DNA of 64,000 nucleotides. Origin: Candidatus Hydrothermarchaeales archaeon (GTDB lineage Archaea > Hydrothermarchaeota > Hydrothermarchaeia > Hydrothermarchaeales > JAZGAD01). The position numbers and the translations under genes were made by a program. The notes under the pieces are model-generated. The model worked only from the letters and a program-made list of their open reading frames with translations. It was not told the DNA's origin and made no database searches. The stretch covers positions 92-64,091 of the forward strand of contig JAZGAD010000048.1 of assembly GCA_036444275.1 (NCBI GenBank), written 5' to 3'. Positions 16,704-43,601 of the stretch are shown here, piece by piece (positions within the stretch are counted from its first letter, which is position 1; every line of letters begins with the position of its first letter).

Positions 16704-18620
16704 ATGAGGGCCCTAACGATTGCGCTTGTACTCCTACTGTTATCTCTCCCAGCAACATATGCAGGGGACCTCGACGTAGCCCGTGAAGCTGGGAAGGAGT
16801 ACGCGAAGTTCCGGGAAAGGATAGCTGTTGAAGGCCCATTCTACGTAGCTGGCCAGCCTTACTATGTTCTGGATTACGTTTCTAGAGAAGGTGTCAGGGC
16901 ATCACTTGTCTATGATTATAGTGCAGGAGAATTCATCTCTGGAGAGACTGCAAGCAAGGTGCTGGCGACCCGAGATTTGAAGAGCCTCTTGCTCTGGGAT
17001 CCGCTCTTCTATGCCATTGGCGACGCCGATAAGATCCCGCTTGCAGCTAGATATGAGACACAGAACGTCCGCAACTTTGCAGAGTTCGCTACTCTGAGCA
17101 AGGAAGAGAGAGAACAGTTAGAGCAATTCCTTGCCGACTATGAGCAGACCGCCAGGGATATAGCAGAAGTAAGCAGGATCACCAACTCTATGCTCTACCC
17201 AAAAGGCATAGAGTTCATCTACAGGAGGTCATCCCCATATATCACCATCAACATCAGAGATACAGCTACCGAGGGACACTTCTCATACGAGGGCTTCAAG
17301 GAGTTGATAGATTCATATAACACTGTTTATTCTGATTATCAACGCCTGATATTAGACTTGCGTGTGTTCGCAGGAGAGCTTGAGGAATACCTACCAGGCG
17401 AGACGATAAGGGAAAAATGGGAGGTGGAGATGACCAAGGAGAGTCTTCTGACAGAGGTATCTCTAGCTGGGCAGAACGCGCGCTTACTTAAGGGGGAGAT
17501 AGACGTGCGAAATGATATAGCATCATGGCCTTACAATGAAACAATAGGCACCCCTGAAGAGGTAGGTCGAAAGGAATTTCCAAAGGGCTTTTTAATTCTA
17601 TGGATACTCCTAGCTGTTGCAGCCTTGCTGTTCTACTTCAGGAAACGCCCGCCTGCAATACTGCTTCTAGTAGTGTGTGCAACCCTAGTAGGGACCTTGG
17701 GTCAAGCTCTCGTGGAACCTCAAATCCCCAAGCCTGAAGAGTTAATCTCTAAGAAGATAACCGATACAAGCGCAGTGCCGGTAACAATACTGGCGGAAGG
17801 CGTAGACGAGAGTACGATAAGAGAACTCCTCAAGGGTTTCCCTCTCCTCCTCGAGGGTCAGGGAGTCTATATCAGGGGGCCGTACTATTACTACGGCAGG
17901 CCCAACTACCTCTTTGATGTGGTTGAAAACAATGTATCCACAGGCTTCGCGTTCCTCATCGATGCCACTACCCTGCGTTTCGTTGGGGATCAACGCATGG
18001 CATTCCAGCTCTTTAAGGCAATCTTCTTATCAGACATGGTGCAGCGCCAGCCTCTCTACACGGGCGTGGACCATGAGGCTATTGCAGATACTGCAGCCGA
18101 GTCCGCACCACCCCTAGATGTGTTCTTAGCGAACCTCTCGACGAATATCGAGGAAGGGCAGACGCTGGAGACGAGCCTCGTGGAAAAGCCTGATTTTGAA
18201 ACAGTAATGAAGCTGACAAAGAATTACATCAAAACCTTCATGCTCCTGCATAACCTGGAGAAGCTTACATCGCCAGAGGAAACGAGGAGTATGACCCAAG
18301 GATTCTCTGAACAAAAAACTGCCATCGAGGCATATGCCAGAGCCATGAGGGGCCTCTCAGCCGACGAGTACCTAGAAGCGAGAAGGGCCCAGTATATAGG
18401 GCGCAGTTTGAATAGGCTGCCCCTGATGAAAAAGCTATCAGCGATGGGGATGTCACCAAGTAGAGCCCAAGTTGTGCATGACCTGACGAGCGACCTCCTC
18501 TATGACAACATATTCCTATGGCGCTTGGAGAAGCCGAGAGATCCAAACCTCTTCGCCCGCCTAGCCTTTAAAGAAGGTACATTTACCCTACCGGGGACAG
18601 CGAACGTCACGCAGAGTTAG
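16704..18620 (+). CDS. Hypothetical membrane-anchored secreted protein with two related halves
   Basis: 638 aa with an N-terminal signal peptide, a central pair of hydrophobic helices and a repeated GPxYxxGxPxY motif. Confidence 0.85.
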   Translation: MRALTIALVLLLLSLPATYAGDLDVAREAGKEYAKFRERIAVEGPFYVAGQPYYVLDYVSREGVRASLVYDYSAGEFISGETASKVLATRDLKSLLLWDPLFYAIGDADKIPLAARYETQNVRNFAEFATLSKEEREQLEQFLADYEQTARDIAEVSRITNSMLYPKGIEFIYRRSSPYITINIRDTATEGHFSYEGFKELIDSYNTVYSDYQRLILDLRVFAGELEEYLPGETIREKWEVEMTKESLLTEVSLAGQNARLLKGEIDVRNDIASWPYNETIGTPEEVGRKEFPKGFLILWILLAVAALLFYFRKRPPAILLLVVCATLVGTLGQALVEPQIPKPEELISKKITDTSAVPVTILAEGVDESTIRELLKGFPLLLEGQGVYIRGPYYYYGRPNYLFDVVENNVSTGFAFLIDATTLRFVGDQRMAFQLFKAIFLSDMVQRQPLYTGVDHEAIADTAAESAPPLDVFLANLSTNIEEGQTLETSLVEKPDFETVMKLTKNYIKTFMLLHNLEKLTSPEETRSMTQGFSEQKTAIEAYARAMRGLSADEYLEARRAQYIGRSLNRLPLMKKLSAMGMSPSRAQVVHDLTSDLLYDNIFLWRLEKPRDPNLFARLAFKEGTFTLPGTANVTQS

Positions 18621-18823: not shown

Positions 18824-19204
18824 ATGACTATTTACGAATATTACATACCAGTAGCCATATTCATAATTGTTGGATTGCTTTTCCCGATTGCTGCGATGGT
18901 GTCCTCCTGGCTTTTTAGAGTCAAAAATCCCTATCCTGAGAAGCTCACGACCTTTGAATGCGGTGAGATACCAATTGGCAATGCACAGATCCAATTCGAC
19001 ATACAGTATTACATGTTCGCAATCCTCTTCGTAGTGTTTGACATAGAGACTGTCTTCCTCTATCCATGGGCGCTGGTATTCCCAGAACTCGGGATGCTAG
19101 CTGTGCTCGAGATGATCCTTTTCATCGCTATCTTAGCACTCGGCTTGATATACGCCTGGAAAAAGGGAGTCCTAGAATGGATGCCCCTTACCTGGAGGGA
19201 TTAA
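18824..19204 (+). CDS. nuoA: Complex I-like subunit A (FpoA/NuoA)
   Basis: KLTTFECGE, YYMFAILFVVFDIETVFLYPWA, YAWKKGVLEW. Confidence 0.95.
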   Translation: MTIYEYYIPVAIFIIVGLLFPIAAMVSSWLFRVKNPYPEKLTTFECGEIPIGNAQIQFDIQYYMFAILFVVFDIETVFLYPWALVFPELGMLAVLEMILFIAILALGLIYAWKKGVLEWMPLTWRD

Positions 19205-19732
19205 ATGAAGGTTCCAGTGGCCTTTGCAAAAAAAGACGACCTCTTGAAGATCGCAGAAGACGAAGATAAGAGGTCCGCTGTCGTAGAAAGCATGAAAAAC
19301 GGCAGGGACTACCTTATCAGGTGGGGGCGTAAATCATCATTATGGGGGTATGCCTTCGGCCTCGCCTGCTGTTCAGTAGAGATGATATGTTTTGGAGCAG
19401 CGAGGTGGGACGCTGACAGGTTCGGCGTGATCTTCAGAGGCTCCCCTAGGCAGTCAGACCTCATGATCGTGGGGGGCACTGTAACCAAGATGATGGCACC
19501 CCGCATAAGGCGTTTGTACCATCAGATGGCAGAGCCCAGGTGGGTAATCGCCACTGGAGAATGCGCCATAACAGGCGGCCCGTTTTGGGATTCCTACAGC
19601 ATCGTAATGGGCACAGATAAAATAATCCCAGTAGACGTTGTTATCCCGGGTTGCCCAGCTAATCCAGATGCGCTTTTCGACGGCATAATAAAATTGCAGA
19701 AGAAGATAATGGAAGGGGACGCTGGAAGGTGA
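19205..19732 (+). CDS. nuoB: Complex I-like subunit B (FpoB/NuoB)
   Basis: [28 protein letters not shown]. Confidence 0.95.
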
Positions 19733-21405
19733 ATGAGGTAATAGATGCGCTGAAGATGCGCTTTAAGGAGGATATCCTCCATATATATGAGCAAAGAGAG
19801 AAGAGGATAGTTGCTGCCGTAAAGAAAGCAAGCATATTAGATGTCTGCAGGTATCTAAAAGAAGAGCTGGATTTTGATCATCTCTCCACCATTGCAGCTG
19901 TTGACCGCTCAAGGCTCGTCTCTGGTATAGACCACGATGGAAGCATGATGTATCGCAAGGATTTCGAGGTCACCTATCATATCTGGTCCTATTCCAGGCA
20001 TACGATAGTCGAGTTGAAAACCATTATACCATGGAATTCCCCAAAGCTGCCTTCAGTTACTCCAATATGGAGGTCTGCGAACTGGCATGAGCGGGAGCAT
20101 TATGATTTGATGGGCATAGTATTTGAGGGGCATCCGAATCTGCGGAGGATCCTATTACCACAGAACTGGAAGGGCCATCCGCTGAGAAAGAACTATAAAC
20201 TTGCTGAGAGCTCCTGGTTTCTAGAGAAAGATGAAGCTGAGTCAGAGGGAAGTGAACTCGATGAGCAGGTGCCTTATTTCGAGCTTGATGATAAACTAGC
20301 AGATAAAGTGAAAGAGGCGCAGGTCTCGGAGATGATAGTCAGATGCGGTCCAGTGCATCCCGGCATACATGGGCCTTGGCTGATAAACCTTAAACTTGAC
20401 GGCGAGATCATAGTCGATGTTGATATTCAAATCGGCTACATACATAGGGGGCTGGAAAAGATTGCCGAGAACAGGACTTACCAGCAGTATCTGCCGGTTT
20501 CTGATAGGTACTGCTGGCTTACAGCGATATCGAATAATCTCTCCTATGTGCTTGCAGTCGAGGACTTAATGGATATTAAGCCGACTGAGAGGGCAGAGTA
20601 TATCAGGGTGATCGTGCTGGAGCTCAACCGGCTCGCGAGCCACCTGATATGGCTGGGTGCAATGGGCATAGATCTAGGCAACATCTCAGGGCTCATCTAT
20701 CCCTTCAGAGAACGGGAATGGATGCTCGATCTCTTGGAGATGGCCTCGGGTAACAGGATGAACTACAACTTCGGAAGGTTCGGGGGAGTACTCTTCGACT
20801 TGGATGAGAAATTCATAAAAAAGGCGAAGAAGACCATGGAGATCTTCATGCCGAGGCTGCAGGAATATGCGGACTTCTTCAGCGGCAGTAGGATATGGAG
20901 GGCTAGGACGCAGGGTGTAGGTGAACTAACAGCAAAGGATGCAAAAAATCTGGGTGTCACAGGGCCGATGCTCAGAGCTACTGGTGTAAAGGCTGACACG
21001 AGGAAAGACGATCCTTATGCTACCTATGAAGAGATCGACTTCGAGATTCCAACGAGGAAGGATGGCGATGCATTTGCAATGTATGAGGTAAGGATGGAAG
21101 AGATGAGGATAAGCACAGAGATAATTGACCAAGCCCTAGATAACCTCCCAAATGGCCCTTACCAGGAGGAAGTAGGAAGGGTTGAACCCAGTGGAGAGGC
21201 CCTCAGTAGGATAGAGGAGCCGAGGGGGGAGATCGCAACATACTTGGTCGGCGACGGTAGCGACAAGCCGTATAGGCTTAAGGTCCGGGCAGCAGAGTTT
21301 GTTAATATATCAGCGCTGCCCCACCTCGTGCGGGGATTTAAGATCCCTGATTTAATAGCAATCATAGGAGGCATGGACCCATGTCTTGGGGGGATAGACA
21401 GGTAA
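19729..21405 (+). CDS. nuoCD: Fused complex I-like subunit C/D
   Basis: [32 protein letters not shown] (C), then [18 protein letters not shown] and EEPRGE (D). No complete NiFe CxxC motifs. Confidence 0.95.
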
Positions 21406-21439: not shown

Positions 21440-22567
21440 ATGGGACTTTATGCTGAGGACATGGATCGGCTCTACCATGGGAGAACCGCATTTATCCAGC
21501 TAGTCGTGGCTGCTGCTACGATGGTTGTAGCTCTCGTTGGCGCCTCTTTGCTTGTAAGCTATATCGGGAGCCTTGCCCCTCCCTGGTTTTGGGATAATCC
21601 CTGGATCAGAGGCATTATAGGAGCGATTTTGTGGGCAGCGATCGCCGGTGTAGGCGGTCTGTACTTAACATGGCTTGAAAGAAAGGTGATGGCGAGGATC
21701 CAAGTAAGATACGGGCCGAATAGATGGGGAAAATACGGGCTCCTGCAACCGTTTGCAGACGCCATTAAATTACTGACAAAAGAAGATGTGATACTGGATG
21801 CAGCGGACAAAGCGGTCTTCAGAGCTGCGCCTATCGTTGCCTTTGCGCCTGCATTTCTAGCATTTGCAGCTGTCCCTGTTACCGCGGAGCTCATTGTTTC
21901 TAGAACTGATATAGGTATCTTATTCATAATCGCCGTGAGTTCTCTAACTCCTATAGGCGCTATCATGGCTGGATGGGGGCCAAATAATAAATGGAACCTC
22001 ATAGGAGGGATGCGCTTCGCAGCCCAAATGATAAGCTACGAGGTGCCGATGGTACTGGCGATCATAGGCCCGATAGCCCTTGCACGATCCCTTAACGGCG
22101 TAACGATAGTCATGGCACAGGCTGGCTACTGGTTTGGATTTATCCCAAAGTGGTATGTCTTCCTCCAGCCCCTGGGCTTTCTCATATTCCTCATAGCGTT
22201 CATGGCAGAAACCTGCAGGATACCCTTTGATCTTCCAGAGGCCGAAAATGAATTGGTCGGTGGCTGGATAACCGAGTACAGCGGCATGAAGTTTGTCATG
22301 CTCCTCCTCGTCGAATACGTTCATTTAATCGCCGGCGGCGCCTTGGTTGTGGTGTTGTTCCTAGGGGGCTGGCAGGGGCCATTCTTGCCTCCTCTGGCTT
22401 GGTTTATGATAAAGTTGCTAGCTGTGATTTTCTTCATGATGCTGGTTAGGGCAACGCACTTCAGGACGAGGATAGATCAACTCCTTGCTTTGGGCTGGAA
22501 AGTACTCCTTCCACTAGCACTTCTCAACATAGGCATAACAGGAATTATATTGGCATTGACGGTGTAG
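21440..22567 (+). CDS. nuoH: Complex I-like subunit H
   Basis: ERKVMARIQVRYGPNR, GLLQPFADAIKLLTKE, RIPFDLPEAENELVGGWITEYSG. Confidence 0.95.
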   Translation: MGLYAEDMDRLYHGRTAFIQLVVAAATMVVALVGASLLVSYIGSLAPPWFWDNPWIRGIIGAILWAAIAGVGGLYLTWLERKVMARIQVRYGPNRWGKYGLLQPFADAIKLLTKEDVILDAADKAVFRAAPIVAFAPAFLAFAAVPVTAELIVSRTDIGILFIIAVSSLTPIGAIMAGWGPNNKWNLIGGMRFAAQMISYEVPMVLAIIGPIALARSLNGVTIVMAQAGYWFGFIPKWYVFLQPLGFLIFLIAFMAETCRIPFDLPEAENELVGGWITEYSGMKFVMLLLVEYVHLIAGGALVVVLFLGGWQGPFLPPLAWFMIKLLAVIFFMMLVRATHFRTRIDQLLALGWKVLLPLALLNIGITGIILALTV

Positions 22568-22570
22568 GAA

Positions 22571-24247
22571 ATGGTATTAAAACCCACGATAATAGGATTC
22601 AAGCACCTCTTTAGAAGACCGGTGACGATACAGTATCCCTTCGAGAAACTGAAGGTCTCAGAGAAATACAGAGGCGTACCAGCTGTGAATCCAGATGCAT
22701 GCACTGCTTGCGGTAGGTGCATAGAAGTATGCCCCAATGACTGTACCATACTTGTAGATTGGGAGGGTGGCCAGAGAAAGGGAAACCAGGTGCCGAATTT
22801 GTATACCTCACGCTGCATGTTCTGCGGCCTATGCGTTGAGGTCTGTCCCACTGGAGCACGAGTGAGTACGCGGGAATATGAGTTGGCGGAGTATACGCGA
22901 GAAGAATCCCTCTGGAGTCCTGAGCGTATGCTACCTCTCGTTATAGATAGAACCGTATCACCTATCGTTAAGGCACCAGAAATAAACGAGGATGAATGTG
23001 TAAACTGCTTGGAATGCAAGCGGATCTGCCCTGAAGATGCGATTTCGAATATCGATAAAGGTGACAAGAGGACGCTCGTGATAGACTATGATAAATGCAC
23101 CTTCTGCGGGAAATGCATAGACATATGCCCGCCTCAAGCATTGAGATATGCGGAGAAAGAGATTAAAGAGGGCATGAAGCTCGAGTGGAAGAAGAAGATA
23201 CCGGTTAAGGACATAGAAGTCAAAAATTACTTCGAGCTGCTAAATAAGAAGGTGATAGAGTCCAACTGGTGCTCCCACTGCACTGCATGCATAGTGGCAT
23301 GCCCAGTCGAGAGGATAAAGGGAAAAGACGTGGAGATATACGAGGACGAGAGTATTGAGTGCAGCGACTGCAGTCTCTGTGTTCGTTCTTGCCCAAGATA
23401 TGACTACGAGAATCCAAATGGTCTAGGCGATTATCTAGAGGTATTCTCAGCTGGCTCAAAGAGGTTCGTAGGCCAAGATGGAGCTATGGTAACAGAGCTA
23501 CTAACGAGTGCGATGGAGATGGGCATCATAGACACAGCTATCGTGGTTTCTGGAGACAAGCACTGGCACCCGGTGCTTAGGATTGCGCACACACCTGAGG
23601 AAGTAACCGCTGGTTTGAAGACCAAGTATGCCCTGGCTGACGTTCTCTCTATTTTGAAGCTTGCTGACAGTCAGACTAGAAAGGGTATTGGAATTGTGGG
23701 TACGCCGTGCCAGATAGAGGGCTTTAGGAGGCATGCCGAGAAGACCAAATTCTTCACATCAAAAGTAAAGCTGGTTGTAGGCATCTTCTGCTTTGAGAAT
23801 TTCTATTACAAGAGGTTCTACGAGGACTTTCTAGGCGGACACGGCATAGTTGCAAAGGATATAGAGAGGGCTGACATGAAGAAAGGCGTGCTCACCGTGG
23901 ATACAAAAGACGGGAAGATATACGAGTTCAAGGTCGCCGAGTTCGAGCACTATGCACTGCAGGGCTGCATGATCTGCCAGCACTTCATCAACATGACCGC
24001 TGACATTTCTGTGGGTGGAAGCGGATCCGAAATGGGTTTCAGTAGCGTATTCGTCAGGAGGGAAAACGTGACGCCCATAATAGAGTACATGAGAGAAAAG
24101 GGTTATATCGAAGAAGCTGGGGAAGAACAGATGGAGAAGGTTTTGAAGGTGAATAATTTTATGTGCAGGTTTAAGATTAAGAAGCATCCGATTGAGCCCT
24201 ATCTAGAGGCAAGAGGTAAAGCAGGAGTCGTTGCAGATGGCAGCTGA
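22571..24247 (+). CDS. NuoI fused to an extra 2x[4Fe-4S] ferredoxin and an FpoF/FrhB F420-binding domain
   Basis: NuoI N-terminus VTIQYPFEK..KYRG, six CxxCxxCxxxCP motifs, and FrhB motifs GQDGAMVT, VGTPCQI, GIFCFENF, GCMIC and ADISVG. Confidence 0.9.
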   Translation: MVLKPTIIGFKHLFRRPVTIQYPFEKLKVSEKYRGVPAVNPDACTACGRCIEVCPNDCTILVDWEGGQRKGNQVPNLYTSRCMFCGLCVEVCPTGARVSTREYELAEYTREESLWSPERMLPLVIDRTVSPIVKAPEINEDECVNCLECKRICPEDAISNIDKGDKRTLVIDYDKCTFCGKCIDICPPQALRYAEKEIKEGMKLEWKKKIPVKDIEVKNYFELLNKKVIESNWCSHCTACIVACPVERIKGKDVEIYEDESIECSDCSLCVRSCPRYDYENPNGLGDYLEVFSAGSKRFVGQDGAMVTELLTSAMEMGIIDTAIVVSGDKHWHPVLRIAHTPEEVTAGLKTKYALADVLSILKLADSQTRKGIGIVGTPCQIEGFRRHAEKTKFFTSKVKLVVGIFCFENFYYKRFYEDFLGGHGIVAKDIERADMKKGVLTVDTKDGKIYEFKVAEFEHYALQGCMICQHFINMTADISVGGSGSEMGFSSVFVRRENVTPIIEYMREKGYIEEAGEEQMEKVLKVNNFMCRFKIKKHPIEPYLEARGKAGVVADGS

Positions 24248-24731
24248 TTTAGCAGTATTTTTAATAATAGCTCTGATTACGATAGTTGCATCTGTTTTAG
24301 TTCTAGAATCCAAAGAGATATTCCATGCCGCATTATTTTTGGCCTTATCCTTCATTGGCGTAGCCGGATTATTTGTACTCCTCGGGGCTGAATTCCTAGC
24401 TGCTATCCAGGTTTTGATCTATGCAGGGGCTGTGATTATACTGGTCTTATTTGCAATCGTACTGACGAAGAGGGACAAGGTAGGAGCGGGACTGGAAGAG
24501 CATGACAGCAGCTTGTTGAGGTTCGTAATAGCTGCGGCGTTTGTATTCCTACTGGCGCTGCCCATTGCAAGTGTCGCCTGGCCTACCCACATGGTGGTTG
24601 AGTTTTCTACAGCCGCAATAGGGATTTCGATGTTCACAGAGTATGTTATCCCGTTTGAGATAATATCATTGGTATTGCTAGCTGCTTTGATCGGCGCGGT
24701 TTTTCTTGCGAAGAGGGAGGATGCATCGTGA
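24237..24731 (+). CDS. nuoJ: Complex I-like subunit J
   Basis: AEFLAAIQVLIYAGAVIILVLFAIVL, PFEIISLVLLAALIGA. Confidence 0.93.
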   Translation: MAADLAVFLIIALITIVASVLVLESKEIFHAALFLALSFIGVAGLFVLLGAEFLAAIQVLIYAGAVIILVLFAIVLTKRDKVGAGLEEHDSSLLRFVIAAAFVFLLALPIASVAWPTHMVVEFSTAAIGISMFTEYVIPFEIISLVLLAALIGAVFLAKREDAS

Positions 24732-25036
24732 TTCCACTCCTCTATTACTTGCTCCTATCGACCGTTCTCTTTGGAATCGGAGCCTACGGGGTCATGACGA
24801 AGAGAAACGCAGTACGCGTGCTGATGGCGATCGAGATAATGATGAGTGCAGCGACGATAAACCTCGTGGCCTTCTCGGCGTATATGCCACACTTAAATAT
24901 ATCTGGACAGATATTCGCATTGTTCGTAATAGCAATTGCTGCAGCTGAAAGCTGTATTGGACTAGCGATATACATCCAGCTGTTCCGTGTCTACGGCACT
25001 ATTGATGTTAGAGAGATGAGTACCCTGAAGTGGTAA
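24728..25036 (+). CDS. nuoK: Complex I-like subunit K
   Basis: LMAIEIM, GQIFALFVIAIAAAE. Confidence 0.93.
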   Translation: MIPLLYYLLLSTVLFGIGAYGVMTKRNAVRVLMAIEIMMSAATINLVAFSAYMPHLNISGQIFALFVIAIAAAESCIGLAIYIQLFRVYGTIDVREMSTLKW

Positions 25037-25050
25037 TAGGAAGGTTTGAC

Positions 25051-25149
25051 ATGCCTGAAGCTGAAGTGATACATTCGCTAAGACCGTTTACCCCACTGCA
25101 ACTAGCGCATACAGCTGTTAAAGAGTTCTTGCACATCGGAGGATTATGA
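25051..25149 (+). pseudogene. 32-aa in-frame deletion remnant of an MrpD-like subunit
   Basis: MPEAEVIHSLRP and FTPLQLAHTAVKEFLHIGGL match the N-terminus (MVAEVVQSIRP) and C-terminus (YTPFRLTHAAVRQFLHMPALF) of the 38180-39682 protein. Confidence 0.75.
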
Positions 25150-25550
25150 TGAGAAAGATAAGAAAGAAATTGGCTACAACAAATGTTGCAAAAAAAATCT
25201 TTGCCATTGCCCTGGTATTTATCTTTATTTCAATCTTACTCTCTCCTGCATGGGCGGTCAGCTCCTCAACTTCAGAGCTTAAAAAGTCTCATGGAGAAGG
25301 CGGTGTTCAGGAACCTGAAGGTGTTATGAAGCATGGAGAAGCTGTAGCTGTAGAAAGGAAAGCTGAAGTCCACGAGGAACGCGATCATGAGGTAGCAGAT
25401 CATGAACACGAGGCGGCTCACGAAGAGCCCTGGTGGAGATTTCGTGGATTTGAAGCCGTTTTTGCGGTCTTCGCCTGCCTTTATTTCTTTTTGGCGGTGA
25501 AGGGGCTACCCTTGATACTGGAAGACAAATCGATGGGCAGGAGACATTAG
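25146..25550 (+). CDS. Small membrane protein with His/Glu-rich loop (Mrp-operon-type accessory)
   Basis: N-terminal TM/signal, HEERDHEVADHEHEAAHEE, then a WWRFRGFEAVFAVFACL TM helix. Confidence 0.75.
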   Translation: MMRKIRKKLATTNVAKKIFAIALVFIFISILLSPAWAVSSSTSELKKSHGEGGVQEPEGVMKHGEAVAVERKAEVHEERDHEVADHEHEAAHEEPWWRFRGFEAVFAVFACLYFFLAVKGLPLILEDKSMGRRH

Positions 25551-25553
25551 TAG

Positions 25554-27761
25554 ATGGATACCATAATCCTCCCGGCACTGATATATATTATAGGTGCGTG
25601 CTTGATCCCCTTTTTGAAGGGGAAGACCAAGAAGGCTTTCCTAGTCTTAGTACCTTTGATAGTCCTAGTAGAGGTACTCTTGATTAAGGCGCCTATGACT
25701 GGGTGGCGTTTTTCCTATCTAGATTTCACTATCACCCTATTCTACGCCGATAGATTGAGCATGTTGATGGGGTACATATTCAGCATCATAGGCTTCCTGT
25801 GTATCCTCTACTCCCTCCATGTCGAAGATGATCAACATCACGTCTTCACCTTCCTCTATGTGGGCGCCGCATTGGGCGTCGTATATGCCGGGGACTTCTT
25901 CTCCTTCCTGGTGTTCTGGGAAATAATGGCCATCACCGGTGCCGGGATCATATGGGTAAAGAGGGACGAAAAGGCGGTAAAGGCCGGGTTTAGATACGTG
26001 ATGATGCACGTCATAGGTGGGGCCGTGCTGATGGCGGGCATACTGGTGCACTATGCTTCTACCGGTTCCATCGTCATGGGTCCAGTGGAGTCGGGTATAG
26101 CAGCGGCTTTGATCCTCTTTGGAATCGGCTTGAATGCGGCATTCATCCCGATCCACACATGGCTGCCTGATGGCTATCCCTCTGCCCCTCTCACTGGGAG
26201 CATCTTCCTCTGCGTATTCACCACCAAGAGCGCGGTCTATGCCCTCGCTAGAACATCTCACGGCCCATCCATGTTCGTCGCTTATATGGGGGGTTTGATG
26301 GCGGTATACGGCGTGACCTTTGCGTTGATGCAGGGCAATGCAAGGAAGTTGTTGTCCTACCACGTCATCAGCCAGGTGGGCTACATGGTGGCGGCCGTGG
26401 GCATAGGAACCGCCATCGGTGTAAATGGCGCCTTCTTCCATGTCTTCAATCACATCCTCTACAAGTCCCTCCTCTTCATGTGCATAGGCGCCGTCATCTA
26501 CCGCACGGGCATAGAAGATCTCAAAGAGCTCGGCGGACTCGCGAGAAAGATGCCGATAACGACTCTAACTGCCATCGTCGCAGCGGCCTCCATTTCCGGT
26601 GTGCCCTTCTTCAATGGTTTTGCGAGCAAGGGTCTGATATTCGAGGGCGCCCACAACATACACGGTCTTTACATACTCCTGGAGATAGCGGCAGTGGGCA
26701 CCTTCCTATCCTTCTGCAAATTCATCTACTTCGGGTTCTTGAGGAAGAGGGATGTAGAGCTCGATGTCAGCGATCCTCCTTTGCATATGTCCCTCTCCAT
26801 GGCGATAACAGCCTTCATGTGCTTTTTCATCGGCGTCTATCCCCCGTTGGTAGCTACTATATTGCCATTCGAGACGCCCTTCCACTATTACGGGTTGGGA
26901 CACCTCTTTGGCGCATTCCTCCTCCTGGGAACCACAGCGGTGATCTTCTGGAAAGGGAAGAATCTATTCGCGCCCCACAAGTGGGTGATTCGCGATTTTG
27001 ATCGTATCTATAGAAGGGCCGCCACCGGCTTCTTCTGGTTATGCAATGTCCCGGGGGTTAAGATAGACAGGATGATAAACAGGGGCTACGAGGGCGGCAG
27101 CAGAAAGCTGATGACGGTCGCCATACCAGCGACGGAATTCGACAGGGTGATAGACAATGCCTATGTGGGCACGGGTAAGAGGCTGGTTGAGACAGCTGCG
27201 CCCGCTACGGAATTTGACAGGATGATAGACAAGGGATATATTAAAACCGGTGAGAAGCTTGTGGATGCAGTTGGTCCCCCCGCTACGGAATTTGATAAGA
27301 TGATAGACAAGGGATACGTAGAGACCGGCGAGAAGTTTGTGGATAGCATCGGCCGTGGTAAGGTGAGATACGAGCCTGGAGAGTCTGAATTTTTCGACGT
27401 GAAAAGTGAGGAGGAGTTTCGGTTGTTTGGGAGATACTCTGTTACCATTCCTAGTTTTGGGGAAAGGATGCCTTTGAAGAAGAGCGAGGGGATCTTCTTT
27501 GAGTTCACTAATCATGTAGCCGCATTTGACCTGAAGGTCATCGATGGGGTTGTAAATCTATGTGGCATGGGTGTCTGGGGCATTTCAAAGATATCGGATA
27601 TATTCGATATAAGAGTTGTCGATGGTACTGTGAATGGCATCGCTGATGCACTTCGTGTGTTCGGGAGCAAGCTGCGGAAACCCGAGACAGGGATAATACA
27701 TGACTATGCAAGTGCAGTGATAATGGGAGTAATCGCTTTGGGGATAGTAATACTAACCTAG
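25554..27761 (+). CDS. Antiporter-like subunit in the NuoL position: MrpD-type core with NuoL-type C-terminus
   Basis: Core WEIM, HTWLPDGYP, FTTKSA, LSYHVISQVGYM. About four ~25-aa PATEFDRxID repeats. C-terminal VIDGVVN...VVDGTVNG...LRKPETGIIHDY. Confidence 0.85.
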   Translation: MDTIILPALIYIIGACLIPFLKGKTKKAFLVLVPLIVLVEVLLIKAPMTGWRFSYLDFTITLFYADRLSMLMGYIFSIIGFLCILYSLHVEDDQHHVFTFLYVGAALGVVYAGDFFSFLVFWEIMAITGAGIIWVKRDEKAVKAGFRYVMMHVIGGAVLMAGILVHYASTGSIVMGPVESGIAAALILFGIGLNAAFIPIHTWLPDGYPSAPLTGSIFLCVFTTKSAVYALARTSHGPSMFVAYMGGLMAVYGVTFALMQGNARKLLSYHVISQVGYMVAAVGIGTAIGVNGAFFHVFNHILYKSLLFMCIGAVIYRTGIEDLKELGGLARKMPITTLTAIVAAASISGVPFFNGFASKGLIFEGAHNIHGLYILLEIAAVGTFLSFCKFIYFGFLRKRDVELDVSDPPLHMSLSMAITAFMCFFIGVYPPLVATILPFETPFHYYGLGHLFGAFLLLGTTAVIFWKGKNLFAPHKWVIRDFDRIYRRAATGFFWLCNVPGVKIDRMINRGYEGGSRKLMTVAIPATEFDRVIDNAYVGTGKRLVETAAPATEFDRMIDKGYIKTGEKLVDAVGPPATEFDKMIDKGYVETGEKFVDSIGRGKVRYEPGESEFFDVKSEEEFRLFGRYSVTIPSFGERMPLKKSEGIFFEFTNHVAAFDLKVIDGVVNLCGMGVWGISKISDIFDIRVVDGTVNGIADALRVFGSKLRKPETGIIHDYASAVIMGVIALGIVILT

Positions 27762-27777: not shown

Positions 27778-29250
27778 ATGTTTCCTATACTGTCTGCGAT
27801 GATTTTGTTGCCCTTGGTGGGCGCATGTGTAGGCTACCTTATAGGTAGAAAGAATGTGAGGACTGCGAAGTTTTTTGATGTAGCAATAATGCTTTTGACC
27901 TTTCTAATATCAGTCATAGCATATACACTGATTGACTTTTCAAAGCCTGGGTATCACCTCTTGGAGAGCATGCCCTGGGCGAGCTCCCTGGGCGTATCCT
28001 ACACCCTAGGCGTAGACGGCATTAGCTATCCCTTGGTGCTACTCACTACCTTTATCTCTATACTCGCGATGGCCTCGTCGTGGCATATAACCGATAGGAC
28101 GAACACGCATTATGCACTGTTGCTCCTGTTGGAGGCAGCCCTCTTAGGCGTCTTTGTATCGCTGGATCTCTTCCTATTCTTCATCTTTTGGGAGGTCGTC
28201 TTGGTGCCGATGTATTTCTTAATAGGGATCTGGGGCGGACCAAGGAGGGAGTACGCAGCTATAAAATTCTTTATATATACGCACCTCGGAGGGCTTTTTG
28301 TCTTGCTTTCAATCATAGCCTTATATTTCAATACAATCCCACACACTTTCAGCATGATCGAGATAGCGAAGGTTGCGCCTGGATTCTCGCAAAGTTTCCA
28401 GACCATTGTGTTCGCTGCCTTGTTCTTCGGTTTTGCGATAAAGCTCCCGATTTTTCCCTTCCATACATGGCTGCCGGACGCCCACGTAGAGGCACCTACT
28501 GCAGGAAGCATACACCTCGCGGCACTTCTCCTAAAGATGGGTGGCTACGGCTTAATACGCATTGGAGTTATGATGGTACCAGACGGTGCTAGAGCTCTCG
28601 CTCCAGTCATGATTTTGTTGGCTGTGATAAGCGCCTTCTACGCAGCATTCTGCGCTATGGCGCAAAAAGACCTCAAGAAGATGATCGCCTATTCCAGTGT
28701 AAGCCACATGGGCTACGCCCTCCTGGGTATAGCTACATTCAACATCATAGGTATAACGGGCTCGATCTATGAGATGGTGGCACATGGATTAATAACAGGG
28801 ATGCTTTTCTTCCTGTCAGGCATCATCCACGACCACGTCGGCTCGAGGAACATAGAGGATATAATAGGTTTCGGGAAAAAGACGCCGAAGATTACGTTTG
28901 CAATCGTCATAGGGTTCTTCGGTGCTTTCGGTCTGCCCGGCCTAGCCGGATTTGTAGCCGAGTTCATGATATTTGTCGGCGCCTTTGAGGCATTCAGGTT
29001 TATAGCAATAATAGTGGTCTTCTCGATTCTCTTCACAGCGGGATACTTCCTCTGGACGCTGCAGAGACTCGCCTTTAGGACGCCGCTTCCAACACTTAAG
29101 GAGCACATCGAAGACCTGGAGTTCTGGACCGAGCTGGTACCTATCGCTATGACAATATTCCTTATAATCCTGCTTGGAATCTACCCCGCACCACTGCTGA
29201 ACATGATGGACACCTCGGTTAAAGCCCTGGTCGCTGTTCTTGGGGGATAG
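27778..29250 (+). CDS. nuoM: Complex I-like subunit M
   Basis: FWEVVLVPMYFLIGIWGG, HTWLPDAHVEAPTAGS, LLKMGGYG. Confidence 0.95.
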   Translation: MFPILSAMILLPLVGACVGYLIGRKNVRTAKFFDVAIMLLTFLISVIAYTLIDFSKPGYHLLESMPWASSLGVSYTLGVDGISYPLVLLTTFISILAMASSWHITDRTNTHYALLLLLEAALLGVFVSLDLFLFFIFWEVVLVPMYFLIGIWGGPRREYAAIKFFIYTHLGGLFVLLSIIALYFNTIPHTFSMIEIAKVAPGFSQSFQTIVFAALFFGFAIKLPIFPFHTWLPDAHVEAPTAGSIHLAALLLKMGGYGLIRIGVMMVPDGARALAPVMILLAVISAFYAAFCAMAQKDLKKMIAYSSVSHMGYALLGIATFNIIGITGSIYEMVAHGLITGMLFFLSGIIHDHVGSRNIEDIIGFGKKTPKITFAIVIGFFGAFGLPGLAGFVAEFMIFVGAFEAFRFIAIIVVFSILFTAGYFLWTLQRLAFRTPLPTLKEHIEDLEFWTELVPIAMTIFLIILLGIYPAPLLNMMDTSVKALVAVLGG

Positions 29251-29252
29251 GC

Positions 29253-30680
29253 ATGAATTACCTTCTAGTAGCTCCAGAACTTATCCTCGCTTCTTTTGGC
29301 ATAGTAGTACTACTCCTAGATCTATTCATAAAGGAAAAGAAACTGCTGACCTACTGGACCCTGGCTGGATTACTGACAACTCTTTTAGCGGTGTTCTACC
29401 TGCTCGGTTCCAGTGGCTTGATCTGGAACGGTATATTGATTATAGACTCGTTTTCCCTGTTCTTCAAGATCGTCTTCCTTGTTGTCGCCATCCTCGTGAC
29501 CCTCGCGTCTGCAACATACATCCAAGACGGCGATCTAGGAGAATATTTCACGCTTATCATCTTTTCTACTCTGGGGATGATGTTTGTCGCCTCCTCAGGG
29601 GAGCTGATCACCCTCTTCGTATCCCTCGAGCTCGCCACCGTGCCGACCTATGCCTTGGTGGGCTTCTTCAAGAAGGATCCTCACTCAAGCGAGGCTGCCA
29701 TAAAATACTTCATCATCGGCGCACTCTCATCTGCGATAATCGTCTTCGGCATGAGCCTAATCTATGGTGTAACCGGCTCAACGTACCTCTACGAGATCTC
29801 TGCTGCACTAAGAGAACCGGCGGTACAAGGCATGTACAACCCGGTCTTGCTTCTTGGGACTATCCTGCTGGTCGCTGGTTTTGCTTTTGAGATTGCTGCC
29901 GTGCCCTTCCACATGTGGGTCCCGGATACATACCAAGGAGCTCCGACCACAATCACGATTTTCATGGCAGCCCAGGCAGAGGCAATGGGGTTTGCAGCGA
30001 TTTTCAGGCTCTTTGGAGTCGCACTTGGGCCATTACAGCTCAACTGGCAGTCCCTCTTCATGGTTCTTGCCGTGATGACGCTGCTCCTCGGCAACCTTGT
30101 GCCACTAGTGCAGACGAGTGTGAAGCGTTTGCTGGCCTATTCCTGCATCGGGCATGCTGGCTACATTCTGATTGGCTTAGCGGTTGCCACACCCCTCGGA
30201 TTCACTGGCGGGATGTTCCATGTTTTAACATATGCATTTATGAAGGGCGGGGCTTTCCTCGTTGTAACCATGGTCTCCTACACCCTCCTCGTGGACGACA
30301 TCGATGATTACGCTGGACTGAGAGATAAGGCACCGCTTACAGCGTTTTGCATGCTCATATTCCTTCTTTCGCTCGCTGGAGTCCCACCGCTAGCTGGTTT
30401 CTGGAGCAAATTCATTATATTCTCAGCCGCAATAGAGGGGGGCGTAGCATGGCTTGCCGTATTGGGAGTTATAACAAGTGCTATATCCCTATACTACTAT
30501 GCGAGGATCATAAAAGCTATGTACCTCACCCCTACCGAGAAAATGGAGAGGATTAAGGAGCCGAAGCCCCTGCTTCTTGCCATGCTGATCGCACTAGCAG
30601 GCACTATTTTAATCGGGCTGTATCCCGAGCCTATATTGAAGTTCGTGTCAAGTGCAGTACAGAGCCTGCTCTTCTATTAA
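29253..30680 (+). CDS. nuoN: Complex I-like subunit N
   Basis: EAAIKYF, PFHMWVPDTYQGAP, KRLLAYS, SLAGVPPLAGF. Confidence 0.93.
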   Translation: MNYLLVAPELILASFGIVVLLLDLFIKEKKLLTYWTLAGLLTTLLAVFYLLGSSGLIWNGILIIDSFSLFFKIVFLVVAILVTLASATYIQDGDLGEYFTLIIFSTLGMMFVASSGELITLFVSLELATVPTYALVGFFKKDPHSSEAAIKYFIIGALSSAIIVFGMSLIYGVTGSTYLYEISAALREPAVQGMYNPVLLLGTILLVAGFAFEIAAVPFHMWVPDTYQGAPTTITIFMAAQAEAMGFAAIFRLFGVALGPLQLNWQSLFMVLAVMTLLLGNLVPLVQTSVKRLLAYSCIGHAGYILIGLAVATPLGFTGGMFHVLTYAFMKGGAFLVVTMVSYTLLVDDIDDYAGLRDKAPLTAFCMLIFLLSLAGVPPLAGFWSKFIIFSAAIEGGVAWLAVLGVITSAISLYYYARIIKAMYLTPTEKMERIKEPKPLLLAMLIALAGTILIGLYPEPILKFVSSAVQSLLFY

Positions 30681-35686: not shown

Positions 35687-38161
35687 TCACATCGTACCTA
35701 GTGCTGTTAGCAGGTATATGGTAAGCATGGTTGCCATTATGATAACTGCAATACTAATACCACTGATATTCGGTGTCTCATACAACAACTTACGGCTTTT
35801 TTGCTCAAATTCCGCTGCTCTATTCTGGAAGCCCGGTATCTCCTCCTCTCCAAAGAGTAGATCAAAGGGATATGAAAGCATTGCATATGGATATTTGGCC
35901 ACCGTGATTACGTCCTCACCTATTTCCCTGAAGAAATCCTCTGCATTCTGGTCGAATATCGAGACCGGCTCCCTAAGGTACTTGAATCTTACTTTCACCC
36001 CCAGAATCCTGTCCTGTATGTCCTTTGGTAGGCTTGAAACCTTGATGAATTCTTTACCTCTCTTTATGTATAAATCATCTATGCTATCAAACCTTGTCAT
36101 GGGTGACTTCGCTATCTCAATAAACTTTCTACCGCGCTTTATATACAAGTATAACATGCCAGACTTTCCAGGTGGACCGACTGCATCCACAAGCTTCTCA
36201 CCGGTTTTAACGTATCCCTTGTCTATCATCCTGTCAAATTCCGTAGCGGGCGCAGCAGCCTCAACCAGCCTCTTACCCGTGCCCACATAGGCCTCATCTA
36301 TCACTCTATCGAATTCCGTAGCAGGCACAGCTACCCTCATCATCTTCCTACCCGAGCCCACATAGGCATTATCTATAACCCTGTCGAAACTCGTAAACGG
36401 ACCCATGCAAAGCCCTACCAAGGCACCGGCAGTCCGGCCATACCAATAATCAACCCCCAACCAACTCGGCAAGTGGATGTGGAACCAACCCTGCTTTATC
36501 CCAAGGGCATAGACAAGAGCACCTATAAACAAGCTGACGCCAATACCTAAGAGGCTATGCACAGTCCACACGTCTATATAGGCCAACTCCTCTACGAAGA
36601 CCCCGCCATAGGTATAGGCAGAGGCAGCGGGAATCAAGAAACGGTCAACCAAGAGATTCGGCAACACACCCAAGAGGAGTATCACAGAGGCAAGGCCGCC
36701 CATAGCAATCTTCATAGGCAAGGGAGCATCCCTAACCTCGCCGAAACGCTCATCCTTCTTACCCAGGAACGTGAACGTAACCAGCTTAATAAACGAGGCA
36801 GCAGTACCGCCGCCCGTGACTACAAATATGAGTTCAGCGAGATGCAGGGAATTCATGCCAAGCAGGGGAATCACCACGCTAGAGGCCTCCTTAGCCTCGA
36901 TGATAGCATCATGCAGGATAGTCTTACTCGCATAGCCATTGAAACCAGGCACACCAACAATACCAGCGGCTGCAATCACCATGACCAAAAACGTGAAAGG
37001 CATATCCCTCCACAGGCCGCCCAACTTATACATGTTAAGCTCTTTGGTACGATAATAGACAGCGCCGACGCCAAGGAACAACAAGGCCTTAAACAAGGCA
37101 TGGTTAATGATGTGGTAGACACCACCAGCAAAGCCAATCACACCCCCATAGCCGAGGTAGGCGCCAACGCCAATACCCATGAGTATGTATCCCATCTGGC
37201 TTATACTATGATACGCCAGCATACGCTTAGAATTCTCCTGCAACAAGGCCATGCAGACAGCAAAAAACATAGTCACAATACCAATCCAGATCATCCAATA
37301 ACCAATAACAGACGTAGCATCCCAAGCACCACTAAGAGAAAACGCCCCAATGCTAGGCGTGAACATCATGTTCACCACCCTAACAATACCATAGGCACCG
37401 GCCTTAATCATGACGCCAGAGAGCAAGGCACTAGCAGGCGAAGGAGCAACAGGGTGCGCCTCAGGCAGCCAAATGTGCACAGGAAACATACCAGCCTTCA
37501 CGCCAAAGCCCAGTACCATCAACCCAGCTATCGCATACCTCCACGAGCCTAGGAAAGCCAATTCCTCTGCCAAAGGAACAAGAGCGAGAGAACCAGTATA
37601 GATATAGATTAGTACAATGCCAAACAAGAGCGAGAGGCCACCCCCAATCCCCATGAACAAGTATTTCCTACCGGCACGCATAGCCGCAGGCGTCTCAGTG
37701 TGTACAACTAGGACCCAGGAGCTCAGGGTAAGCAGCTCAAAAAAGATGAACAAACTGAAGAGGTCACCAGTCAACAGGACGCCAAGGTCAGCGGCGAGAG
37801 TAAGCACAAAGAAGGCGTAGTACCTATCCCTAGCGTGTTCATGCGTCATATAACTGATAGAATAGACCGCTACAAGAAGCCAGACAAAAGAAGTGACCAG
37901 GGCAAAGAGGAAGCCAGTGCCGTCAACCCAGAAGCCAATGCCAAAGATCATGAGGCTCCCCAAGTCGTACCCGACGACACCGCCGCCACTTATAACGGGG
38001 TACATAGAGGCAACAAGGACGAACGAAGCGAGGCAGATGGCTACGGCAAGGGCATCTCTAAGGCGTTCGGAACGCCTGCCCAGTGGATACAAAAACAAAG
38101 ACCCCAACAAAGGCACAAACACAGCCAAAGCTGGCGTTATTGATATTTCCATGGGTGTCAT
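35687..38161 (-). CDS. Mrp antiporter MrpA/D-like subunit with repeat-extended C-terminus
   Basis: FFELL, VKAGMFPVHIWLPEAHPVAP, IKAGAYG, KRMLAYHSISQMGY, plus PATEFDRxID repeats. Confidence 0.9.
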   Translation of the reverse strand: MTPMEISITPALAVFVPLLGSLFLYPLGRRSERLRDALAVAICLASFVLVASMYPVISGGGVVGYDLGSLMIFGIGFWVDGTGFLFALVTSFVWLLVAVYSISYMTHEHARDRYYAFFVLTLAADLGVLLTGDLFSLFIFFELLTLSSWVLVVHTETPAAMRAGRKYLFMGIGGGLSLLFGIVLIYIYTGSLALVPLAEELAFLGSWRYAIAGLMVLGFGVKAGMFPVHIWLPEAHPVAPSPASALLSGVMIKAGAYGIVRVVNMMFTPSIGAFSLSGAWDATSVIGYWMIWIGIVTMFFAVCMALLQENSKRMLAYHSISQMGYILMGIGVGAYLGYGGVIGFAGGVYHIINHALFKALLFLGVGAVYYRTKELNMYKLGGLWRDMPFTFLVMVIAAAGIVGVPGFNGYASKTILHDAIIEAKEASSVVIPLLGMNSLHLAELIFVVTGGGTAASFIKLVTFTFLGKKDERFGEVRDAPLPMKIAMGGLASVILLLGVLPNLLVDRFLIPAASAYTYGGVFVEELAYIDVWTVHSLLGIGVSLFIGALVYALGIKQGWFHIHLPSWLGVDYWYGRTAGALVGLCMGPFTSFDRVIDNAYVGSGRKMMRVAVPATEFDRVIDEAYVGTGKRLVEAAAPATEFDRMIDKGYVKTGEKLVDAVGPPGKSGMLYLYIKRGRKFIEIAKSPMTRFDSIDDLYIKRGKEFIKVSSLPKDIQDRILGVKVRFKYLREPVSIFDQNAEDFFREIGEDVITVAKYPYAMLSYPFDLLFGEEEIPGFQNRAAEFEQKSRKLLYETPNISGISIAVIIMATMLTIYLLTALGTM

Positions 38162-38179
38162 ACTCTATCTATGCTCCTA

Positions 38180-39682: not shown

Positions 39683-39696
39683 TTCATCACCTCAAA

Positions 39697-41175: not shown

Positions 41176-41315
41176 GCAGCCACCCTTCTAGTTTCTACGC
41201 AACCATGGGTAAGCCGTTCTACTTACTTATAACTTTCTATTCGTCTTGTTAATCACTCCTAAGTGATGACCTAATATTTATTATTAATTATTATAATTTT
41301 AGATTTTAGGATGAA

Positions 41316-42806: not shown

Positions 42807-42818
42807 CTGCCCCCTCCC

Positions 42819-43178
42819 TTAGCGCTTCCTGATCTCCCTGATCTTATCTGCATCTAGGGTCCCATATTGATCATACAGCTTCACTATGAGGCCCAGCGCA
42901 AAGGCTGTGACGCTGACTGCGACGACTATCGCTGTTAGTATGAGTGCTTGTGGCAGGGGATTTACATAAATAGGGTTCTCAACGCCGGGTATTACGATTG
43001 GTGCTATGCCGCCACGGACGCTTCCCATGGATATAAAGAAGAGGAAGACAGAGGTATCCATGATATTCATTCCGATGATCTTTTTTATCAGGTTCCTCTT
43101 GGTGATCACGGTGTATAGTCCTATTAAGAAGAGCGTTGACGAGATGAGGTAGTTGTATTGGAAGAATAGCGGCGTCAT
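42819..43178 (-). CDS. mrpC: Mrp antiporter subunit C
   Basis: NLIKKIIG, NPLPQALILTAIVV. Confidence 0.93.
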   Translation of the reverse strand: MTPLFFQYNYLISSTLFLIGLYTVITKRNLIKKIIGMNIMDTSVFLFFISMGSVRGGIAPIVIPGVENPIYVNPLPQALILTAIVVAVSVTAFALGLIVKLYDQYGTLDADKIREIRKR

Positions 43179-43601
43179 TTACTCATATTCCTCCGCTATT
43201 GTGTAAAAGAGCGTCTTCCCAGTGCTCGCGACCTTGAAGCCTATTACCACGTTAATCGCTAGGATTATACCGCCGCTGAAAAGCTTTCCAGGGCTCCCTA
43301 TTGGTATACCTACAATCTTATTTGCAAGGAAAGTGCCCCCCAAGACAATGCCTACTAGACCTATCAATGCATAGAAAAAAGTAGAGCTCTCAAGAACAGT
43401 AGACAATAGATGGTTGGCTCTTCTACGCCCTTCGTCTAAGCCGAACACCACGGCGAGTAATATCATGCTCGCCCCTATTACAGCACCCCCTTGGAAACCG
43501 CCTCCAGGGGTTAGGTGTCCATGGAAAATGATGTACAGCCCATACATCTGTATGAAGGGAATCATTAACCTAGCCGTCGTCTTAATGATGAGATCTTCCA
43601 T
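43179..43601 (-). CDS. mrpB: Mrp antiporter subunit B
   Basis: HGHLTPGGGFQGG. Start MEDLIIK. Confidence 0.92.
   Translation of the reverse strand: MEDLIIKTTARLMIPFIQMYGLYIIFHGHLTPGGGFQGGAVIGASMILLAVVFGLDEGRRRANHLLSTVLESSTFFYALIGLVGIVLGGTFLANKIVGIPIGSPGKLFSGGIILAINVVIGFKVASTGKTLFYTIAEEYE

Follow-up and report, generated by a model that had tools for sequence, protein, structure and literature searches.

The systems closest to the one described here are the F420H2 dehydrogenases Fqo, of Archaeoglobus fulgidus and ANME-1, and Fpo, of Methanosarcina. FpoF is a separate, dissociable protein encoded elsewhere in the Methanosarcina genome, and the A. fulgidus FqoF is reportedly a separable subunit that oxidizes F420H2. 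In a 64,000-nucleotide stretch of a draft genome from a Candidatus Hydrothermarchaeales archaeon (contig JAZGAD010000048.1, positions 92 to 64,091; the whole stretch is called the window below), a complex I-like operon holds a single open reading frame (ORF), at 22571..24247 on the + strand, in which counterparts of both subunits appear as one polypeptide of 558 residues. We put at roughly 0.7 the probability that this one chain represents the I and F subunits of an Fqo-type F420H2 dehydrogenase within an 11-subunit complex I-like proton pump. What is new is the presence of Fqo-type I and F subunits as one chain in a complex I operon; the kind of system is itself already known.

Fqo has the same domains in the same order (NuoI core, second 2x[4Fe-4S] domain, FqoF), likewise lacks NuoEFG, and has an orthologous F subunit. 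It differs in that I and F are two genes in 15 split loci examined here and one polypeptide in the window; in that antiporter-like genes lie upstream in its loci, which end B-C/D-H-I-F, whereas the order in the window is A-B-CD-H-[IF]-J-K-L-M-N; and in that FqoI has an N-terminal extension and a longer linker (~35 residues) than the window protein. Fpo too, in the portions of its literature available to us, is a complex I-like pump in which an F420H2 oxidase of the FrhB family, with an N-terminal 2x[4Fe-4S] domain, takes the place of the NADH module. The window protein falls short of the Fpo-specific models, scoring 89.7 against a cut-off of 180 for FpoI and 160 against 475 for FpoF; the FpoI profile has only 135 positions, which suggests that FpoI lacks the second ferredoxin domain.

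Covalent attachment of an F420 module to a partner enzyme has a precedent in Fsr. Fsr and the F420-reducing formylmethanofuran dehydrogenase and CO dehydrogenase of Ca. Ethanoperedens carry the same FrhB-type module with an N-terminal ferredoxin domain, and no PDB entries match better in sequence or fold than those of these enzymes (7np8, 8rja, 8riu). The module is N-terminal in Fsr and C-terminal in the window protein, and the catalytic partners of Fsr and the Ca. Ethanoperedens enzymes are soluble, whereas the window protein would belong to a membrane-bound complex I. The 11-subunit complex I, including photosynthetic NDH-1, has the same 11-subunit core without NuoEFG, and cyanobacterial or chloroplast NdhI and NdhH are among the best PDB matches of the window NuoI and NuoD parts. 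NDH-1 takes up electrons from free ferredoxin by way of small accessory subunits, whereas in the window a putative flavin-containing dehydrogenase module is carried covalently on subunit I.

Domain organization of the fused protein

The fused gene, which was studied by domain profiles, motif positions and alignment of homologs, is a single ORF of 558 codons with no internal stops. Its NuoI core (residues 1-125; 22571..22945, + strand) matches the NCBIfam NuoI model TIGR01971 over residues 7-120 at 132 bits, above the cut-off of 113.05, and PDB structures of complex I subunit I over residues 7-138; the N-terminal segment is typical of NuoI, and the motifs C44-C54 and C82-C92 correspond by homology to clusters N6a and N6b. 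A second 2x[4Fe-4S] ferredoxin domain follows (residues ~130-196; 22958..23158, +; C143-C153 and C176-C186), delimited by alignment with 14 FqoI proteins, and then the fusion junction (residues ~197-209; 23159..23197, +; sequence EKEIKEGMKLEWK...), placed by tblastn, the FqoI alignment and a structural model. Beyond the junction, the FqoF part has its own N-terminal 2x[4Fe-4S] domain (residues ~210-280; 23198..23410, +; C234-C244 and C264-C274), where matches to Fsr, 8rja_E and 8riu_B begin, at residues 219-227, as does that of the NCBIfam FpoF model NF040616, which covers residues 227-530. The flavin/F420 module (23462..24118, +) consists of the Pfam domains FrhB_FdhB_N (PF04422; residues 298-363, 60.5 bits against a cut-off of 22) and FrhB_FdhB_C (PF04432; residues 372-516, 118.2 bits against 23.3), and several Fer4-type Pfam families match over the first half of the protein.

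Six CxxCxxCxxxC(P) motifs start at C44, C82, C143, C176, C234 and C264. Their 24 cysteines, together with C380, C407, C466 and C469 of the FrhB part, are invariant in an alignment of 27 full-length homologs, and these 28 residues are sufficient for seven [4Fe-4S] clusters. An earlier note on this DNA had read the gene as NuoI running on through an extra 2x[4Fe-4S] domain into a full FpoF/FrhB domain, with six motifs in all, and the profiles and motif positions bear out this description. The domain that it called extra is present, but it is not an addition made by the fused protein: it already forms the C-terminal half of FqoI in the 15 split loci.

Integrity and occurrence of the fusion

A single reading frame of this kind might be an artefact, produced by a missed stop, a frameshift or a chimeric assembly of neighboring genes. 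The same two parts are separate adjacent genes in the 15 split loci, and the window comes from a draft genome (1.49 Mb, 81% complete) in 61 contigs. Against this stands first the recurrence of the fusion. When 41 genomes, the window's own and 40 relatives, were searched with the fused protein, a full-length, stop-free match was found in seven: the window's own genome and six others, which are all the genomes of a second family in this order and in which identity to the window protein is 59-68%. The fusion-bearing genomes are 80-96% complete and belong to these two families only; the single other genome of the window's family gave no fused match, and its nuoCD contig stops soon after nuoCD. The order nuoH-[IF]-nuoJ-nuoK is unchanged at each of the seven fused loci read in relatives (L008-L013 and L024), and stop-free full-length frames were also found in two loci from a wider genome scan, one of Hydrothermarchaeales (L024) and one in a Methanofastidiosia metagenome-assembled genome (MAG; L025). 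Contigs from four other sequencing runs (three studies, 90-99% alike) span the junction with no gaps and no joints, substitutions in them being known for a subset only, and one contig from another run covers 22400-24052 unbroken. Among the database matches listed, 33 of 120 protein clusters have the six motifs and 29 of these 33, of several sources, also have the NuoI N-terminus; finally, the junction is modeled as ordered beta structure. The stop between the domains that the earlier note had named as a possible disproof was not seen, and the recurrence with the same synteny and the gap-free contigs of other runs led us to drop the artefact explanation as hardly credible, as far as sequence data go.

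The architecture is nevertheless rare: the best 150 matches in a set of 1.84 billion cluster representatives (50% identity) include three full-length fused proteins and one truncated one. The sources of the fused clusters include "archaeon BMS3Abin16", "Candidatus Hydrothermarchaeales archaeon" and "Methanobacteriota archaeon", and the clusters are annotated as NADH-quinone oxidoreductase subunit I or coenzyme F420 hydrogenase subunit beta. Full-text searches of the literature returned no description of an I-F fusion, although supplementary tables may list the gene. The other ground on which the earlier note would have given way, an architecture already common and described, thus applies in one respect, since the fusion recurs in relatives and is not unique to the window genome, but it is neither common nor, in the literature searched, described.

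Published accounts of Hydrothermarchaeota come close to it. The available sections of Kato et al. (2019) report an 11-subunit Nuo without NuoEFG, leave its donor open and make no mention of a fusion; the MAG of archaeon BMS3Abin16 from that study carries the fused protein, annotated as NADH-quinone oxidoreductase subunit I. Carr (2019), in the sections available, names an fqo complex, glossed as ferredoxin:NADP+ oxidoreductase, again with no mention of a fusion, and a term search of Zhou (2020) showed that F420, Fpo, Fqo and Nuo do not occur there. Two surveys of complex I variants (PMC3144371, PMC12361115) list CD and BCD fusions, and no I-F fusion, in the parts available. The fusion thus corrects the published picture of the Hydrothermarchaeota complex as an 11-subunit Nuo with an open donor.

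Probable origin from FqoI and FqoF

An alignment of 27 fused proteins was used as the query in a scan of species-representative genomes, and it matched over nearly its whole length in loci of Archaeoglobi, Methanophagales (ANME-1) and MAGs labeled Methanosarcinales or Halobacteria. Reading frames were inspected at 22 of these loci. In 15, fqoH is followed by a gene for FqoI (239-281 residues, four motifs) and then directly by one for FqoF (338-383 residues), the two frames overlapping by a few bases in some cases; in four, FqoF stands alone, near a contig end or elsewhere. The fused six-motif protein accounts for two loci (L024 and L025), and the last (L032) encodes a six-motif protein without the NuoI N-terminus. 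The earlier note's premise that the F subunit is elsewhere a separate protein agrees with the separate genes in the Archaeoglobi and ANME-1 loci examined. In tblastn comparisons, query residues 18-196 fall on FqoI and residues 196/205-543 on FqoF. Alignment of the first 200 residues with 14 FqoI proteins showed the four motifs in all 14, with all 16 of their cysteines invariant.

The position of fqoF directly downstream of a four-motif FqoI in the split loci points to a plain fusion of two neighboring genes, and the window protein is accordingly a head-to-tail FqoI-FqoF fusion joined at about residues 196-205. Such a fusion would have arisen by loss of the gene boundary between the adjacent, in some loci overlapping, fqoI and fqoF. 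In an AlphaFold2 model the junction forms a beta-hairpin (strands E191-197 and E203-209), with blocks at a predicted local distance difference test score (pLDDT) of 91-95. An in-frame ATG (M201; 23171-23173) stands in this region, after the purine-rich stretch AAAGAGGG. Its position is exactly that of the first residue of split FqoF proteins, and it may be what is left of an earlier fqoF start codon. An internal start there, yielding free FqoF, is not proposed, the methionine being unconserved in relatives.

The opposite order of events is a less likely reading of the F-module tree presented below: when that tree is rooted by outgroup, the split FqoF clade excludes the fused forms, and the single chain could then be the older form and the split Fqo of Archaeoglobi and ANME-1 the product of a later fission.

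Identity of the F module

The best non-fused relatives of the fused protein are the split FqoF proteins of Archaeoglobi, ANME-1 and Syntrophoarchaeum, at 39-44% identity (E ~1e-79 to 1e-65). The remaining FrhB-family proteins match at E 1e-34 or weaker. In the search of the related genomes, the five other FrhB paralogs of the window's own genome are 30-33% identical (E 6e-34 or weaker). A tree of the F module was made with 114 rows by a quick IQ-TREE search with outgroup rooting and support from the Shimodaira-Hasegawa-like approximate likelihood ratio test, leaving out the fragments P0020 and P0028 as well as P0084 and P0118-P0120. In this tree the fused and split forms (81 rows) are a single clade, with support of 99, apart from 33 other FrhB-family rows. 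The split clade itself (54 rows, support 99) includes truncated stand-alone proteins and four of intermediate length. Three fused lineages lie outside it: 19 rows of Hydrothermarchaeales type (support 99), seven rows of a second fused clade (94) and the Methanofastidiosia protein, all fused rows falling on one side of a branch only at a support of 77. By these relationships the F module is orthologous to FqoF.

The structural model of the fused protein (mean pLDDT 85.7, predicted template-modeling score 0.80) has no poorly defined region apart from the first 30 residues, whose counterparts in complex I contact other subunits. The N-terminal part matches complex I subunit I in fold, and the C-terminal part matches Fsr as well as 8rja_E, 8riu_B and FrhB, the last three with template-modeling scores by target of 0.79-0.86. 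The genome has cofG (431.7 bits), cofD (340 bits) and cofE (306.5 bits), all over their cut-offs, with a cofH-like gene beside cofG and a gene for F420-dependent Mtd (349 bits) adjoining cofG, and on this gene content the organism is predicted to be able to make F420.

Proposed electron path and its use

The most likely function of the complex, judged from its genes, is that of an F420H2-oxidizing complex I-like pump with a tethered input module. The steps that follow are modeled on the FrhB, Fsr, FqoF and complex I families. A hydride from F420H2 would pass to the flavin in the FrhB module, and electrons would then travel singly through seven [4Fe-4S] clusters, all within the fused protein. 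The FrhB part would hold one of these and the ferredoxin domain of FqoF two more; a further pair would belong to the C-terminal ferredoxin domain of FqoI, and the remaining two would be N6a and N6b. NuoB would receive the electrons next, at its cluster N2, and a lipophilic acceptor at the NuoCD/NuoH pocket would take them up, driving ion translocation through the antiporter-like L, M and N subunits. The F420 module would be a permanent, one-to-one part of the complex.

Since I and F are one chain here, the FqoF N-terminus of split enzymes would be expected to lie next to the C-terminal ferredoxin domain of FqoI, and the fusion thus suggests the position of the F420-oxidizing subunit on the complex. 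That the fusion fixes F420H2 as the donor and shows where F docks, as the earlier note had it, is something we infer. No Fpo or Fqo structure with the F subunit was found by sequence search or by fold search of a PDB copy up to April 2026, and the single chain supplies a testable constraint, namely that no more than a few residues should separate the FqoF N-terminus from the C-terminal ferredoxin domain of FqoI. The fused protein would also be a handy target for expression and cryo-electron microscopy because its input module cannot fall off. The value of the finding is in this sense practical: it constrains docking and offers those who study the structure and enzymology of F420H2 dehydrogenases a stable target. 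For ANME-1, Chadwick et al. propose, in the passages available, that some Fqo complexes carry FqoF and oxidize F420H2 and that others, without FqoF, oxidize ferredoxin; a covalent fusion would exclude such switching of FqoF on and off in the fusion-bearing Hydrothermarchaeales.

Substrate, donor and acceptor

Several observations weigh against the interpretation as an F420H2 dehydrogenase of Fqo type, or limit how far it can be taken. The first concerns the curated NCBIfam models of FpoF and FrhB, which place on residues 227-539 of the fused protein, all below their own cut-offs: the FpoF models NF040616 and NF006808 score 160.4 against 475 and 150.4 against 444, and the FrhB model 156.6 against 331.5. 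The two FpoF models are built around FpoF of Methanosarcinales, and scores so far below the cut-offs indicate that the F module is a distant relative of the characterized Methanosarcina FpoF. They also leave room for an FrhB-like domain that uses a substrate other than F420, in the manner of the ferredoxin-dependent reductases of the chlorophyll pathway, and superfamily members that do not use F420, such as Arabidopsis HCAR (5dqr_B), do appear in the fold search with lower scores. We consider this improbable: the closest sequence relatives of the domain are FqoF proteins, it lies within the FqoF clade at a support of 99, the twelve best structural matches are all F420-dependent enzymes, and the genome holds F420 biosynthesis genes and Mtd. 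A search of the window's own genome for F420-dependent Mer was negative, which at 81% completeness is not evidence of absence.

A second group of observations concerns the rest of the complex. NuoB, NuoCD and NuoH are 26-44% identical to their counterparts in Fqo loci and 39-76% identical to those of Hydrothermarchaeales Nuo; by these values the core subunits belong to the Hydrothermarchaeales Nuo lineage and not to that of Fqo, and an Fqo-like donor does not establish an Fqo-like acceptor. Nor can the direction of electron flow be deduced from sequence.

The same architecture could therefore serve with reduced ferredoxin as its physiological donor, or run in reverse. In the first variant, ferredoxin reduced by CO dehydrogenase or pyruvate:ferredoxin oxidoreductase would enter at the exposed ferredoxin domains, and the FrhB module would equilibrate ferredoxin with F420; in the second, an ion gradient and a reduced membrane carrier would be used to make F420H2 for the Wood-Ljungdahl pathway. 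According to the passages available in Chadwick et al., soluble FpoF is a ferredoxin:F420 oxidoreductase in Methanosarcina mazei, and Fpo or Fqo without the F subunit oxidizes ferredoxin. Hydrothermarchaeota are described as carboxydotrophs with an archaeal Wood-Ljungdahl pathway (Carr 2019, Kato 2019, in the sections available), and a review, in the part available, treats the source of F420H2 in hydrogenotrophic Archaeoglobus as unresolved, with reverse electron transfer from quinol as one possibility. The four clusters beyond N6a/N6b and the FrhB cluster are possible entry points for ferredoxin. On the other side, a permanent one-to-one F module is what selection would be expected to produce if F420 is a main substrate, the split FqoF orthologs belong to complexes described, in the accounts available, as F420H2 oxidizers, and no ferredoxin docking site is marked in the sequence. 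Ferredoxin donation or reverse operation, which differ from F420H2 oxidation in donor and direction alone and not in the identity of the protein, are thus regarded as unlikely, if worth keeping in mind.

The third group concerns the membrane acceptor. An Fqo system would be expected to have menaquinone as its acceptor; no menaquinone pathway was found in the fusion-bearing genomes: MqnA/D was detected in none of the seven, against 24 of all 41 genomes searched, and MqnC over its cut-off in none of the seven, against 18 of 41, the sole match to the MqnC model in the seven being the cofH-like gene; no genome among the 41 had a MenB match that reached the cut-off. Futalosine-pathway genes are present in most sister families. 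The comparison involves seven draft genomes (80-96% complete) of two families and is a lead, not a statistic, absence in drafts being no proof. Carr et al. (2019), in the sections available, assumed a menaquinone loop for Hydrothermarchaeota.

The quinone site was compared at the column of Tyr87 of Thermus thermophilus Nqo4, which we take to be a quinone ligand. The column was inspected in 46 loci, 45 of which gave a match. The window NuoCD (nucleotides 20503-20517) has DRYCW here in place of DR-x-DY, with tryptophan at the tyrosine position. Five loci have DRYCW: besides that of the window, these are the loci of three relatives with the fusion and of the second genome in the window's family. 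A further 26 loci of Hydrothermarchaeales type, four of them fusion-bearing, have DR-x-DY. The Methanofastidiosia locus has DRMDW, and the residues at 13 Fqo loci are of another kind altogether. Since no tyrosine is aligned here in Fqo proper either, DRYCW is no strong argument against a quinone.

The lack of detected Mqn and MenB genes, the DRYCW site and a multiheme cytochrome gene ~10 kb upstream together allow a version in which F420H2 is oxidized and the complex is not a quinone reductase, the acceptor being another membrane carrier or a cytochrome conduit. We hold this version to be doubtful; if true, it would amount to an F420H2-driven route to extracellular electron transfer.

Related and derived proteins

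The second fused clade (P0021-P0027) consists of full-length proteins of 548-584 residues that share 44-46% identity with the window protein. Six of the seven have an insert within the NuoI part, and some have another, of 20-30 residues, after the junction. Two metagenome scans for their genomic context gave no real relative.

The Methanofastidiosia MAG contig JBHIDS010000078.1 (L025, 3935-10341) has nuoB, nuoCD and a fused I-F gene (552 residues), followed by a gene for a 920-residue protein that combines domains of the FAD-linked oxidase, ferredoxin and CCG (HdrD-like) types. On this 10.5-kb contig neither nuoH nor nuoA was seen, nor any antiporter-like gene. The locus may encode a soluble assembly resembling a Q module, linking F420H2 to a heterodisulfide- or lactate-type enzyme.

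A further set of six-motif proteins (P0030-P0033, 502-511 residues), including one of 506 residues from Archaeoglobus sulfaticallidus PM70-1, lacks the first ~36 residues of NuoI. These proteins score 81-109 bits, below the NuoI cut-off, and nest inside the split FqoF clade; at L032 (8007-9524) the six-motif gene stands alone among unrelated genes. They were considered as the same fusion in a cultured organism and rejected as such, given the missing NuoI N-terminus, the score below the cut-off, the unrelated neighbors at L032 and their position in the tree. They are probably soluble polyferredoxin-F420 oxidoreductases derived from an I-F fusion and not complex I subunits.

Operon and genomic neighborhood

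The genes of the operon are all on the + strand, in the order nuoA, nuoB, fused nuoCD, nuoH, the I-F gene, nuoJ, nuoK, a 134-residue ORF, an L-like gene, nuoM and nuoN. Upstream of the fused gene are nuoA (18824..19204; Pfam Oxidored_q4, 128 bits), nuoB, by family the carrier of cluster N2 (19205..19732; Pfam Oxidored_q6; NCBIfam NuoB NF005012, 215.9 against 116), nuoCD (19729..21405; Pfam Complex1_30kDa and Complex1_49kDa, and alignment to T. thermophilus Nqo4) and nuoH (21440..22567; Pfam NADHdh, 370.8 bits). Downstream are nuoJ (24231..24731; Pfam Oxidored_q3), nuoK (24728..25036; Pfam Oxidored_q2), the 134-residue ORF (25146..25550), a nuoL-like or MrpD-like antiporter subunit of 735 residues (25554..27761; Pfam Proton_antipo_M; NCBIfam PRK12668, 609 bits), nuoM (27778..29250; TIGR01972, 532.5 bits) and nuoN (29253..30680; TIGR01770, 406.2 bits). 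Neither Pfam nor NCBIfam models detected nuoE, nuoF or nuoG in the operon, and the NuoF family Pfam Complex1_51K was not found in the whole draft genome, itself 81% complete; the earlier note's statement that the operon lacks nuoEFG accordingly stands.

The 134-residue ORF has no Pfam or NCBIfam match. An ORF of 638 residues directly upstream of nuoA (16704-18620, +) likewise has no family match, and a protein atlas gave no usable match for it; both could be lineage-specific subunits.

Other parts of the window hold further genes of possible relevance to energy metabolism. A giant ORF of more than 2888 residues (1-8664, -), running off the start of the window and ~10 kb upstream of the nuo operon, encodes a multiheme cytochrome with MtrC/MtrF-like domains II/IV and cytochrome c7 and c3 domains, and could be a conduit for extracellular electron transfer. 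At 35687-45239 (-) is a second antiporter-type cluster, with four Proton_antipo_M proteins (824, 500, 492 and 496 residues), a NuoK-like gene and homologs of MnhB, MbhE, MnhG, MrpF and MnhE; it is an Mrp-like module, with no redox subunits in view. Finally, a 739-residue protein encoded at 54448-56667 (+) combines ferredoxin motifs with an MvhD/FlpD domain, which suggests an electron-bifurcation component of HdrA/MvhD type.

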